A DNA stretch of 19,785 nt, taken from positions 5,147 to 24,931 of the forward strand of contig PSLL01000035.1 of the NCBI GenBank assembly GCA_040289575.1. The letters run 5' to 3'. Made by a program: the position numbers and the translations under genes. Shown here one piece after another: positions 13,673 to 18,824 of this stretch; the stretch's first letter is position 1, and each line of letters begins with the position of its first letter. The notes below the pieces were generated by a model. That model was given only the letters and a program-made list of their open reading frames with translations, searched no databases and was not told where the DNA came from. Source of the DNA: Candidatus Dadabacteria bacterium. Its GTDB lineage: Bacteria > Desulfobacterota_D > UBA1144 > Nemesobacterales > CSP1-2.

Positions 13673-14818
13673 CTAATACCTCGGCATATCGGGGTCGTAT
13701 TCCTCTGCCCAGGCGTCTATACCGCCTCTTAGATTCTTTACCTTTTTGAATCCCATCTGCCTCAAAAACCTTGTTGCACGAAGGCTTCTCATACCGAGAT
13801 GGCAGTAGGCTATGATTTCATCGGCTGTGTCAAGCTCATTTATCCTCGAGGGCAATTCACTAAGCGGGATTAGTATAGAGCCATCTATATGACATATCTC
13901 GTATTCATGGGGCTCTCTGACATCAAGTATTACGACGTTCTTTTTACTCTTAATCAGGTCGTGGAATTCCTCCACTGTGATCTCTAGGTCTGAGCCCGGC
14001 GAGACATCCTCTTCACCGCGTCCGAGCCCGCAGAATTCCTCATAATCAATTAGTCCTGTAATTGTCGGATTATTGCCACATATCGGGCAGTTCGGGTCTT
14101 TTCGGAGCTTTAATTCCCTGATTTTCATCCCCATTACATCAATAAATAGGAGCTTCCCAATGAGCGGCTCGCCCTTACCGAGAATGAGCTTTAGGGTCTC
14201 TGCGGCCTGAAGGGTACCGACAATTCCTGGGAGGATTCCCAGCACCCCCCCCTCAGCACAGCTCGGAACCATTCCCGGAGGAGGTGGCTCAGGATAGAGG
14301 CAGCGATAGCAGGGACCGCGCTTTGCATCAAACACGCTTACCTGTCCCTCAAAACGGAATATGCTTCCATAGACATTCGGTTTTCCGAGGAGCACACATG
14401 AGTCATTTACAAGGTAACGTGTGGCAAAGTTGTCCGTACCGTCAACAACAACATCGTAATCCTTTATAATGTCAAGGGCATTTTCGGATGTCAGCCTAAG
14501 ATTATAGGTTTCTACCTTTACATCTGAATTGATTTCGCGGATCCTTTCTTTTGCGGATTCTACTTTAAGCTTTCCCACCTTGGGCTCGCTGTGGATTATC
14601 TGCCTCTGGAGATTGCTGAAATCTACGACGTCGAAATCAACAATGCCAAGGCGTCCTACGCCTGCTGCTCCAAGATAGAGAGCAAGAGGCGATCCGAGTC
14701 CGCCCGCACCTATGCATAGAACGCTCGATGCGGCCAATTTCTCCTGCCCCTCTACACCCACTTCAGGCATAATCAGGTGCCGACTATATCGGCTTATTTG
14801 CTGGTTTGTGAGATTCAT
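13673..14818 (-). CDS. moeB: MoeB/ThiF-family E1-like adenylyltransferase fused to a rhodanese domain (MoeZ type)
   Basis: RYSRH, GAGGLG, SNLQRQ, DGTDNF, CYRC...SCAEGGVLG...CPIC, C-terminal rhodanese DVREPHE...YCHLGMRS...GGIDAW. Confidence 0.93.
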   Translation of the reverse strand: MNLTNQQISRYSRHLIMPEVGVEGQEKLAASSVLCIGAGGLGSPLALYLGAAGVGRLGIVDFDVVDFSNLQRQIIHSEPKVGKLKVESAKERIREINSDVKVETYNLRLTSENALDIIKDYDVVVDGTDNFATRYLVNDSCVLLGKPNVYGSIFRFEGQVSVFDAKRGPCYRCLYPEPPPPGMVPSCAEGGVLGILPGIVGTLQAAETLKLILGKGEPLIGKLLFIDVMGMKIRELKLRKDPNCPICGNNPTITGLIDYEEFCGLGRGEEDVSPGSDLEITVEEFHDLIKSKKNVVILDVREPHEYEICHIDGSILIPLSELPSRINELDTADEIIAYCHLGMRSLRATRFLRQMGFKKVKNLRGGIDAWAEEYDPDMPRY

Positions 14819-14845
14819 TTGCCATTTACCTTCCTTTTCGAGGAT

Positions 14846-15103
14846 CTATATAACATCTCCGACGAATAATAGGACAAAAGCGATGACGAAGAGCTTTCAG
14901 ATGACATACGATATGGCAACTTCGGTTTATGTCATCCGACTCCTTCCATTGGTCGGAGTTGTGATGGACACCATTGACTTACGGGAACAGGAGCAAAGAA
15001 TAGACACTCCTGGATGCCGTTGCCTGTTGGCTATGGTGTCCTGTTGCTCTTGTTCATCGCAACAGTGGGCGTCTGATTTCTTCTATTCGTCGAAATTATA
15101 TAG
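14846..15103 (-). ncRNA. Unassigned highly structured element, candidate ncRNA or cis-regulatory leader of moeB/moeZ
   Basis: Nested complementary segments: 14846-14853/15096-15103, 14857-14869/15083-15095, 14880-14894/15046-15060, 14900-14908/14928-14936, 14937-14943/14955-14961, 14966-14974/15033-15041, 14981-14984/15017-15020, 14988-14993/15007-15012. Strand is inferred from the promoter and G-U pairs and is not certain. Confidence 0.6.
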
Positions 15104-15130
15104 TTTAATATGAAAATCCTAATTTTTCAA
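15102..15130 (-). promoter_or_regulatory. Candidate sigma70 promoter for the structured element and moeB/moeZ
   Basis: Minus-strand TTGAAA (15130-15125), 17-nt spacer, TAAACT (15107-15102). The implied start near 15095 coincides with the first base of the closing stem. Confidence 0.55.
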
Positions 15131-15192
15131 ATCTCAGTCACAGCGGACTGACTTTGATTTACTTAGTTAAAAGGTATATAATTGAGGCACTT

Positions 15193-15894
15193 ATGAGTAA
15201 AACCAAACCGACAATAGGGATAACAGCGGATATAAAATTGGATGCAGACAATGAAGAAAAATTCGTCGTGGATAGACCCTATGTCGTAGCCGTTGCCAAT
15301 GGAGGTGGCATCCCGCTCTTTCTTCCAACGCTTTCAGAAGGCAGTTTAATTAAGGATTTAGTATCAAGGATTGATGGGCTTCTAATCTCAGGCGGAAGGG
15401 ATATTGACCCGAAGTTCTACGATGAGGAGCCCCATCCAAACCTTAGGCCTATGAGGCTTGAGAGAACACAATCGGAGATGGTCATGTTAGAAGAGTCCCT
15501 AAAACGGGGTATACCCGTTTTAGGTATCTGCGGCGGGATGCAGCTTATAAATGTCTTCTTTAGAGGCTCTCTCTATCAGGACATCTCCTCTCAGATTTCC
15601 GACGCCCTTATTCATGAAAAGGGTTCTGTTCATGAGGTCTATGTTGAAGAGAACACACTTCTCCGAGAGATTACCAAAGAGAAGAGGTTCTCCATAAAGA
15701 GTTATCACCATCAATCCGTGAAGGTACTCGGAAAGGGGTTGAGAATCTCTGCAATATGTCCGGATGGGATTGTAGAGGCAATAGAATGGCCAAATTCTTT
15801 TGTTCTCGGTCTTCAGTGGCATCCCGAAAGGGAAGAGACCGAGATTTCAAAAAGGATTTACAGGGCCTTTGTGGATGCGTGCAGGAAACAATAA
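15193..15894 (+). CDS. Gamma-glutamyl-gamma-aminobutyrate hydrolase family protein (peptidase C26, class I glutamine amidotransferase-like)
   Basis: KPTIGIT, DGLLISGG-DIDP, LGICGGMQ, SYHHQ, GLQWHPE. SD GAGG before ATG at 15193. Confidence 0.92.
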   Translation: MSKTKPTIGITADIKLDADNEEKFVVDRPYVVAVANGGGIPLFLPTLSEGSLIKDLVSRIDGLLISGGRDIDPKFYDEEPHPNLRPMRLERTQSEMVMLEESLKRGIPVLGICGGMQLINVFFRGSLYQDISSQISDALIHEKGSVHEVYVEENTLLREITKEKRFSIKSYHHQSVKVLGKGLRISAICPDGIVEAIEWPNSFVLGLQWHPEREETEISKRIYRAFVDACRKQ

Positions 15895-16044: not shown

Positions 16045-17874
16045 TTGGAAACAATTAGGATTGTTGGAGCAAGAGAGCATAATCTAAAAGACATCACCGT
16101 TGAGATTCCAAGGGGAAAACTCATTGTAATTACGGGGATAAGCGGATCGGGAAAATCCTCCCTTGCATTCGATACGATTTTTGCAGAGGGCCAGAGGAGA
16201 TACATGGAATCCCTCTCTACATACGCAAGGCAGTTTATAGAGAAGATTGACAAGCCCGATGTGGATTCAATAGAAGGTCTTTCGCCCTCCGTCTCGGTTG
16301 ATCAGAGAACGCTTCAGAGAAACCCGCGCTCAACCGTAGGCACGATAACAGAGATATACGATTTCCTGAGGCTCTTTTTCGCCCGCATCGGGAAGCCCTA
16401 TTGCTACAGGTGCGGGGATGAGATAGTCTCACAAAACCTAGATGAGATGACAGAGCGCATCTTTGCCCTTGGAGAGAGGGAAAGGATTTCTATATTCTCT
16501 CCAATTATAATGGGAAGAAAGGGGGAGTATAAAAAAGAACTTGAGGAACTCAGAAAGCAGGGATTCGTGAGGGTCAGAATTGATGGGAAACTCTTTGATC
16601 TTGGGGATGAAATACATCTCGAAAAACAAAAGAAGCATACAATTGAGCTTCTTGTGGATGTAGTAGCTCTTAATAAAGAGGGTTCGAAAGACAGGATTAG
16701 GGATTCTCTAAGACTCGCACTTAGGCGTTCTGGAGGAAGCGCAAGGGTAGAGGCTGAAGGCAGAGGGGCTATTACATTCAGTGAGAAATTCGCATGCCTC
16801 AGATGCGGGATAAGTTACCCAGAGATCTCCCCGAGACTCTTTTCCTTTAACAGCCCTTATGGAGCATGCCCTGAGTGTCAGGGACTCGGAATAAAGTCGT
16901 TTTTTGATCCCGATCTTGTTATTGATTCATGGGACAAGTCAATTGAAGAGGGGGCGATAATCCCGTGGAGGAATTCAGTTTACTTCAGTCGGATAGTTGA
17001 GTGTGTTGCGAGGCATTATAAATTCAGCTTAAAAACACCGCTTAAAAAACTCCCTCCGAAAATAAGAAATATAATCCTCTATGGTGCGGGTGATGAGAGG
17101 ATTAGATTCTATAGGGAAAGGGGCAGATGGACAGAAGAATACTGGGACATATTCCCCGGAGTGATCGGTATTATTTCACAGTGGTACAGAGAGACCGAAT
17201 CAGAAGAGGTCAGAGAGACACTTGAAAGATATATGCGTACTGTTTCCTGTTCTACATGTGGCGGCTCAAGGCTAAAGAAGGAGAGCCTTGCGGTCTTGGT
17301 GTCTAAGAGATCAATACACGATGTATCGAGGATGACTGTCAATGAATGTATCGGTTTTTTTGATGCCCTTGAGCTTAAAGGGAGAGAAAGGGAGATAGGC
17401 GAAAGGATTATTAAAGAGATTAAATCGCGCCTTGGCTTTCTAAAAAACGTCGGTCTCGGATACCTTACACTTGAACGCCCTGCCACTACACTCTCAGGCG
17501 GAGAGGCTCAGAGAATAAGGCTCGCAACCCAAGTCGGATCAAAGCTCGTAGGCGTCATATACGTTCTTGATGAGCCGAGCATAGGGCTTCATCCCAGGGA
17601 TAACCAGAGGCTTATTGGCACACTCAAGGCACTAAGGGATACCGGAAACACAGTTGTAGTCGTTGAGCATGACGAAGAGACAATTAGGAGCGCGGATTTC
17701 ATAGTGGATATGGGGCCGGAGGCTGGAGAAAGGGGAGGGGAGGTTGTCGCTCAGGGGAAGATTTACGATTTAATAAAAAATGAAAAATCGCTTACAGGGA
17801 GGTATCTCTCAGGTGAGCTTTCGATTCCCGTTCCACCAGAGAGAAGAAAACCAAAGGGTTTTATAACAACCTAA
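16045..17874 (+). CDS. uvrA: Excinuclease ABC subunit A, N-terminal fragment (break near 17865)
   Basis: [41 protein letters not shown], zinc fingers, [26 protein letters not shown]. Confidence 0.95.
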
Positions 17875-17915: not shown

Positions 17916-18824
17916 GTGACGGGCGTTTCAGGCTCGGGGAAAAGCACCCTTGTCATTGACACCCTTTACAATGCCATCTCTTCAAGGCTTTACGGAAGCA
18001 AGGGAAAACCGGGCAGGCACAGAGAGATATTAGGAGACGAGGGGATTGATAAAATCGCAAACGTCGATCAATCCCCGATTGGAAGGACTCCGAGGTCAAA
18101 TCCCGCAACATATACCGGGGTTTTTGCTCATATAAGGGAATTATTCTCTATGCTTCCTGAGTCGAGAATGCGCGGATATAAGCCCGGCAGGTTCAGTTTC
18201 AATGTTGAATCTGGAAGGTGCAGCGCATGCAGGGGTGAGGGAATGGTAAAGATAGAGATGCACTTTCTCCCGGATGTCTATGTGAGATGCGATCAATGCG
18301 GAGGAAAGAGGTACAATCCCGAGACACTTGATGTCAAGTACAAAGGAAGGAGCATATCCGATGTCCTGGATATGACGGTAAGCGAGGCGCTTGAGTTTTT
18401 TGAAAATGTTCCACATATAAAATCCAAACTCGAGGTGATCTATGCGGTGGGGCTCGATTACATAAGGCTAGGTCAGCCTGCTACGACCCTCTCGGGGGGT
18501 GAGGCGCAGAGGATAAAGCTCACAAAGGAGCTGTCGCGCCGTGCTACAGGAAGAACTCTTTACATACTTGACGAGCCGACTATCGGGCTGCATTTTGATG
18601 ATGTGAGGGAGTTGCTGTATGTTATTCATAGGCTCGTTGATATGGGAAACACGGTAATTATAATCGAGCACAACCTCGATGTGATAAAGTCCGCCGATTA
18701 CATAATTGATTTGGGTCCCGAGGGGGGAGAAGAAGGCGGGCGGATTGTAGCATGCGGTACACCCGAAGAGGTTTCACAGATTGAGGGATCGTACACCGGA
18801 ATGTTCTTAAAAAGGGTTCTATAA
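17916..18824 (+). CDS. uvrA: Excinuclease ABC subunit A, C-terminal fragment (frame is homologous from 17865: [18 protein letters not shown])
   Basis: [64 protein letters not shown]. Confidence 0.95.

Follow-up and report, generated by a model that had tools for sequence, protein, structure and literature searches.

The window (the whole 19,785-nt stretch of Candidatus Dadabacteria DNA that was analysed) contains an intergenic region with a minus-strand moeZ-like gene on one side and a plus-strand glutamine amidotransferase gene on the other (Table 1). The original prediction had described a series of nested helices filling this region, and these were reproduced on both strands at the same coordinates by RNAfold: a closing stem (14857–14869/15083–15095), a second stem (14880–14894/15046–15060) and three inner arms. 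The predicted folding energy of 14846–15130 was −96.9 kcal/mol on the minus strand (shuffled sequences −61.9±4.7; z = −7.4) and −95.0 kcal/mol on the plus strand (z = −5.5), with none of 200 shuffles as good on either strand. The view that the region is an orphan with respect to known RNA families was also upheld, in that no match to Rfam 15 was obtained at gathering score across the whole window. At E ≤ 10, the interval 14700–15300 returned VqmR alone, at chance level (12.9 bits, E 9.4).

Two further observations concern reading frames of the window. The uvrA gene is apparently split into ORFs at 16045–17874 (609 aa, with UvrA DNA-binding and interaction domains) and 17916–18824 (302 aa, with ABC_tran); a frameshift, decay to a pseudogene or faulty assembly could account for the split. 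On the plus strand, a 133-aa ORF (14712–15113) lies antisense to the start of moeZ and spans most of the structured region; it is most likely spurious.

Forty relatives were searched by DNA, and the intergenic region was recovered solely in two other genomes of the same genus (G001 and G002). In pairwise alignments with each of these, the flanks 14780–14853 and 15104–15200 abut, and a single gap of 250 nt corresponds to 14854–15103 of the window. Identities over the flanks were 55/59, 13/14 and 28/30 for G001 and 54/59, 13/14 and 26/30 for G002. The exact end of the element in the moeZ leader is ambiguous by 2–4 nt, and both placements are given in Table 1. Contigs of four DNA metagenome runs (from two studies; two of the runs are possibly the source) contained the filled site alone, with no joint across the empty moeZ-leader site in any contig of those four runs.

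A minus-strand promoter, TTGAAA-N17-TAAACT, had been assigned to the element as its own. The site is present (Table 1), but the stretch that carries it (15104–15133) is 28/30 identical in G001 and 26/30 in G002, both of which are without the element; the promoter is therefore moeZ's own and older than the insert, which lies just downstream of its −10 box. By consensus spacing, we infer that the insertion would have lengthened the moeZ leader from ∼30 to ∼280 nt. A scan of 14650–15350 found no promoter/terminator pair bounding the window's copy. The suggestion of a 6S-like or co-transcribed small RNA with a promoter of its own was not borne out, given the missing Rfam match and a promoter that pre-dates the insertion; 6S RNA itself was considered and rejected, as no 6S model in Rfam matched and the element is multi-copy and inserted.

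As a whole, the insert occurs only once in its genome, and sensitive searches revealed a divergent family at ∼12 loci. The repeat unit of this family is ∼80 nt long and consists of three hairpins, H1-P2-H3, with stems of 5–7 bp and loops of 11 nt. In H1 the stem varies and the 11-nt loop, close to GACGAAUAGGA, is conserved; P2 is the central hairpin; in H3 the stem ends in UUGC/GCAA and the loop is close to UCUUGUUCAUC. Ten of the 11 positions of the H3 loop can pair with the H1 loop, and the ends of each unit thereby serve as an inverted repeat.

Pairing was assessed on nine units from eight loci of the window's genome (G000), none of them from the window; among such related paralogues the measures are inflated, and with this reservation 84.9% of cells pair as against 70.1% in shuffles (0/500 reaching the observed value), 12 of 18 pairs are changed on both sides (2/500 shuffles), and slid controls gave 31–49% pairing. 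Paired-column changes among paralogues thus lend support to the predicted three-hairpin unit. Stem cells with G-U (12) were not in excess over those with A-C (9), so that selection on a single RNA strand is not indicated; a DNA palindrome accounts for this lack of strand bias better than would an RNA of fixed strand.

The internal organization of the insert became apparent from its alignment to an 81-nt family element on contig C25 of the same genome. The global alignment of 14854–15099 to this element scored 97.2 (200 shuffles, 12.3±4.9; maximum 29.4) and ran end to end with exactly two long gaps, 14875–14962 and 14988–15065. R1, a covariance model of the unit to which the window's units had not contributed, matched inside the insert at 14876–14964 (46 bits) and 14989–15068 (47.7 bits). 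The left end of the insert is the same end as that of the copies on contigs C22 and C25, and its right end is 88% identical over 33 nt to G000:C25:16645–16677; the two ends are inverted copies of each other (CGACGAATA... with ...TATTCGTCG), an arrangement also found at the C22 and C25 copies. Judged by these sequence comparisons, the insert is one host unit, a close relative of the C25 copy, with two further units nested within it. Because any H1 is able to pair with any H3, the nested units would, when folded on paper, give rise to the stems and the junction of the original prediction: the 13-bp closing stem is formed by the ends of the host unit, the 15-nt stem by H1 of unit 1 with H3 of unit 2, and the “four-way junction” is a by-product of nesting.

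Table 1. Features at the moeZ/amidotransferase intergenic region (positions in the window).
Feature	Position	Strand	Basis and remarks
moeZ/moeB-like gene	13673..14818	-	Domains ThiF (2.2e-86) and Rhodanese (1.5e-23); insert now within its leader
Left flanking direct repeat TATATAA, TA-rich	14847..14853		Sequence reading, junction comparison
Composite insertion, ∼246 nt (by gap placement 14854-15103, 250 nt)	14854..15099		Absent from the orthologous site in G001 and G002
Host unit, left end (5' half of H1, terminal inverted repeat)	14854..14874	+	First 21 nt of the C25 element
Nested unit 1	14875..14962	+	H1 14877-14897, P2 14898-14936, H3 14936-14956; first alignment gap and R1
Host unit, middle (5' side and loop of P2)	14963..14987	+	Alignment to the C25 element
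Nested unit 2	14988..15065	+	H1 14989-15011, P2 15012-15041, H3 15041-15065; second alignment gap and R1
Host unit, right end (3' side of P2 and H3, terminal inverted repeat)	15066..15099	+	Alignment to the C25 element
Right flanking repeat TATATAG	15097..15103		6/7 identical to the left copy; sequence reading
moeZ promoter-like site TTGAAA-17-TAAACT	15130..15102	-	Consensus scan, 9/12 positions matched
Promoter-like site TTGATT-17-TATAAT of the amidotransferase gene	15154..15182	+	Consensus scan; outside the insert
Glutamine amidotransferase gene, Peptidase_C26 type, divergent from moeZ	ATG at 15193	+	Pfam domain

Eight copies in G000 were compared with the congeners (the copies on C19, C23, C54 and C122 were left out), and the flanks of one of them, C116a, were not collinear. 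For each of the seven assessable copies, one congener or both had an empty orthologous site: the window's copy and those on C65, C66, C25 and C116 (C116b) were missing in both, and the C99 and C22 copies were missing in G002. Reciprocally, six congener loci were compared, and for both of the assessable ones the site in G000 was empty. One of these two congener copies shares 95% identity over 99 nt with the C65 copy of G000, which is situated elsewhere in the genome, whereas the genes around it are 81–86% identical.

At the level of the phylum, R1 matched 13 of 120 genomes at E ≤ 1e-4. These are all three of the window's own genus and members of some genera in two further families; the 12 remaining genomes of its own family gave none. 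R1 matches in the 13 genomes total roughly 100. Match counts were 20 in G000, 31 in G002 and one in G001; R1 matches on both strands because the unit is nearly palindromic. Of the 16 ORFs flanking eight copies, 13 matched unrelated Pfam families and three lacked a Pfam match. The neighbors included a metallo-beta-lactamase fold, cobalamin adenosyltransferase, EamA, MgtC, amidohydrolase, PP-loop ATPase and AmiS/UreI families, and being unrelated they indicate no link to molybdopterin or sulfur-carrier genes. In its presence and absence at orthologous sites, its patchy spread and its unrelated neighbors, the family behaves as mobile. The MITE-like element offered among the earlier readings can be kept in modified form: the element is inserted and dispersed, and copies differ in place between species, while the “many dispersed copies with target duplications” named as the mark of a MITE correspond only loosely to ∼12 loci with divergent copies and short, variable duplications. 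The low copy number in G000 and the divergence among copies speak against claiming recent activity in that genome.

Ten other family loci gave nothing relevant in Rfam at E ≤ 1, plasmid and phage records gave no match, and four family sequence motifs retrieved unrelated primer-like matches alone from full-text literature. A scan of IMG/VR with the H3 motif returned five loci. One of these, on a predicted viral contig (L230, ∼1495–1578), is weakly family-like (R1 21.8 bits, mostly from H3); the flanks of its hairpin resemble those of the g20 sub-family, and no tRNA is nearby. Within the phylum, eight copies in genome G017 share an end motif that departs from the search pattern at two positions, identical in all eight (nine entries with two mismatches in the end-motif listing). 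These copies, on contigs C78, C138, C225, C226, C293, C294 and C309 (loci L198–L205), also have upstream modules in common, and many lie at contig ends, which suggests a recent burst and larger mosaic elements. On contig C22 of G000, a cobalamin riboswitch (L023:73–259, minus strand; 108 bits, E 1.2e-26) is located ∼800 nt from the C22 repeat.

Junctions varied among copies. The C25 copy is flanked by a clean 3-bp TAA duplication, and the last three bases of the left flanking repeat at the window are the same TAA; the C66 junction has a CAT duplication, the C22 junction one of ∼4 nt, and the C99 copy and the window have TA-rich imperfect repeats of 6–7 nt. The copies on C65 and on contig C90 of G002 had no evident flanking duplication. 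Such variable duplications are not expected of a single classical DDE transposase. The target sequences at G000:C65:7980–8110, G000:C126:20400–20470 and G002:C90 (L152) are alike (GAGGGA ... TTTTAGGGAACC), and the C65 and G002:C90 copies are near-identical units at unrelated loci with similar targets. The likeness of these two targets hints at site-selective insertion into another short repeat.

The search for mobilizing machinery covered five genomes, all of which contained genes or remnants of Y1 (IS200/RAYT-type) transposases. No family hairpin lay alongside any of the 12 Y1_Tnp loci in these genomes, where a single R1 match was at chance level (E 0.19). No recurrent protein adjoined the 30 family loci inspected, and a pattern search of the five genomes with the end motif recovered small elements alone and no autonomous insertion sequence with those ends. 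The Y1 matches of G000 (C116:50118–50405, C126:87760–87997, and others on C50 and C32) are short or interrupted by stops; several in G002 are intact.

We consider the feature to be non-coding mobile DNA, a nest of repeat units moved in trans, rather than a dedicated RNA gene (probability roughly 0.8), and the family is a new family of MITE/REPIN-like structured repeats, ordinary in kind. Units would be moved by an enzyme encoded elsewhere that recognizes hairpin or inverted-repeat ends, and the mover could be either a DDE enzyme or a hairpin-recognizing single-strand enzyme. Insertion would target AT-rich sequence or other members of the family, with duplications of 0–7 bp left behind. At moeZ, passive transcription of the insert within the minus-strand leader is probable. 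It may alter the stability or translation of the moeZ mRNA, and would not have been selected as a sulfur-carrier regulator.

Spread by way of an RNA or single-strand intermediate (HUH/Y1 as for REPINs, or retro-type) in place of a classical DDE mechanism is possible, if somewhat unlikely. The covarying stems imply that the hairpins actually form, the flanking duplications range from 0 to 7 nt, and the Y1 genes or remnants found in five of five genomes would supply a candidate enzyme, yet not one of the 12 Y1 loci has a family hairpin beside it. Two inverted hairpins with a spacer are also the plan of REPINs as presented in PMC3337134; a short-looped hairpin with a GTAG or CGTC tag, as described for REPs in PMC3733652, is absent from the units.

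The H3 hairpin also occurs in elements of another type. All species genomes were scanned for the 19-nt H3 motif, which gave at least 117 stretches where ∼70 chance matches are expected by arithmetic. About 34 of the 80 loci examined among these form a coherent family in candidate-phyla MAGs, with hosts in Omnitrophota, Gracilibacteria, Peribacteria, Ratteibacteria and Dependentiae. Its members (among loci L027–L104, e.g. L036:194–300, L046:343–449 and L034:357–459) are non-coding elements of ∼100 nt that lie beside or within a tRNA gene, with the break point in the T-loop. Direct repeats of 18–32 nt flank them and derive from the 3' end of the tRNA, in some cases with downstream flank included. 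Support for their fold comes from double-changed pairs, 14 of 27 in one sub-alignment and 15 of 27 in another, and they belong to no Rfam family. A short ORF starting from an ATG in the hairpin loop was considered for these elements and rejected on account of frequent stops. Keyword searches brought up no pertinent literature on elements inserted in the T-loop of tRNA genes.

Profile searches of the flanks detected no similarity between the window's family and the tRNA-linked elements outside the hairpin with the 11-nt loop, and R1 matches in the latter were mostly local to H3, that is, to the search motif itself. In G000, no tRNA genes were found near family copies, and the flanks of the C65 and C66 copies did not match the tRNA 3' ends of that genome. 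Because ∼70 chance matches to the 19-mer are expected, we treat the connection between the two groups as weak, and the shared hairpin may be coincidental. It is improbable that the hairpin-triplet units represent an undescribed class of tiny, site-selective mobile elements, read as folded ssDNA or RNA by machinery that does not adjoin them. Were that so, and were the 11-nt-loop hairpin truly shared with the tRNA-linked insertions, a single widespread mobilization system would extend across phyla.

It is quite improbable, too, that the units are a functional RNA family, whether small RNAs or RNA modules (for example protein sponges with a purine-rich, AGGAG-containing loop, or loop-kissing modules of H1 with H3), whose patchiness would result from gene turnover and not from transposition. 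Loops that are conserved while stems covary would suit such a role, as would the copies of genus g20, which are near-identical across species within different flanks. The copies are nevertheless precisely bounded insertions, one with a target duplication, and units nest within each other; G-U does not exceed A-C and there is no strand bias; and the window's copy, the one scanned for these signals (14650–15350), is not enclosed by a promoter/terminator pair. An RNA-level role acquired secondarily by the insert at the moeZ locus is nonetheless conceivable.

A dedicated cis-regulatory RNA (a riboswitch or protein-binding leader) controlling moeZ and sulfur-carrier activation is highly improbable. 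In its favor are the very stable fold and a position between the moeZ promoter and ribosome-binding site that would make it part of the leader. It is already largely refuted by the empty sites: the moeZ leaders of both congeners keep promoter and ribosome-binding site and lack the element. In addition, three nested repeat units make up the insert, no Rfam family, Moco RNA included, matches it, and the same units adjoin 13 unrelated gene families.

Recognition of the feature as nested mobile repeats has several consequences. What seemed an “orphan riboswitch” before a sulfur-carrier gene is a nest of repeats, and a false lead is thereby removed. More generally, nested inverted hairpin repeats give rise to multi-junction folds with extreme z-scores and are a trap for structure-based RNA discovery. 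The H1-P2-H3 family, as captured by R1, can be masked and tracked in the phylum, where it marks recent genome change between sister species. The moeZ locus offers a natural experiment, in that the same gene behind the same promoter either has or lacks a structured leader of 250 nt. Specialists might find it worthwhile to consider the transposase that is missing, duplications of variable length, units nested in their own kind and the hairpin common to tRNA-targeting mini-insertions of candidate phyla.

Among known systems, REPINs and BIMEs provide one comparison. A REPIN, as described in PMC3337134, consists of two inverted REPs with a spacer and is moved by a RAYT, and REPs as described in section 6 of PMC3733652 have GTAG or CGTC tags, stems of 8–9 bp and loops of 4–5 nt. 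The units reported here resemble REPINs and BIMEs in being small (∼80 nt), non-coding and intergenic, in occurring singly, in tandem or as mosaics, and in folding as separate hairpins or as one long stem; the H1-P2-H3 unit likewise corresponds to the two inverted hairpins with spacer of a REPIN. They differ from the REPs of PMC3733652 in having 11-nt loops and 5–7 bp stems, without a fit to the GTAG or CGTC class. They also differ from REPINs in that no repeat-flanked RAYT gene was found (12 Y1 loci, five genomes), copies number in the tens and not the hundreds, and some carry short flanking duplications.

MITEs, of which Correia in Neisseria, RUP in pneumococcus and Nezha in cyanobacteria are examples, are similar in their terminal inverted repeats, their lack of coding capacity and insertions that are polymorphic between close relatives. 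Further points in common are TA-rich targets (here with one clean TAA duplication) and insertion into promoters or leaders, with co-transcription, which at moeZ is probable. Unlike MITEs, the present units had no parent insertion sequence with matching ends in the five genomes searched, their duplications seem not to be constant in length, and they self-nest and are far more divergent than the copies of a recent MITE burst.

The BOX elements of Streptococcus pneumoniae are modular boxA-boxB-boxC repeats. They belong to another phylum, and the H1-P2-H3 organization with complementary loops sets the present family apart from them; likened by description rather than by sequence, the two nevertheless have in common a variable number of hairpin modules, a fold stable in transcripts (predicted, for the present family) and the lack of a linked transposase.
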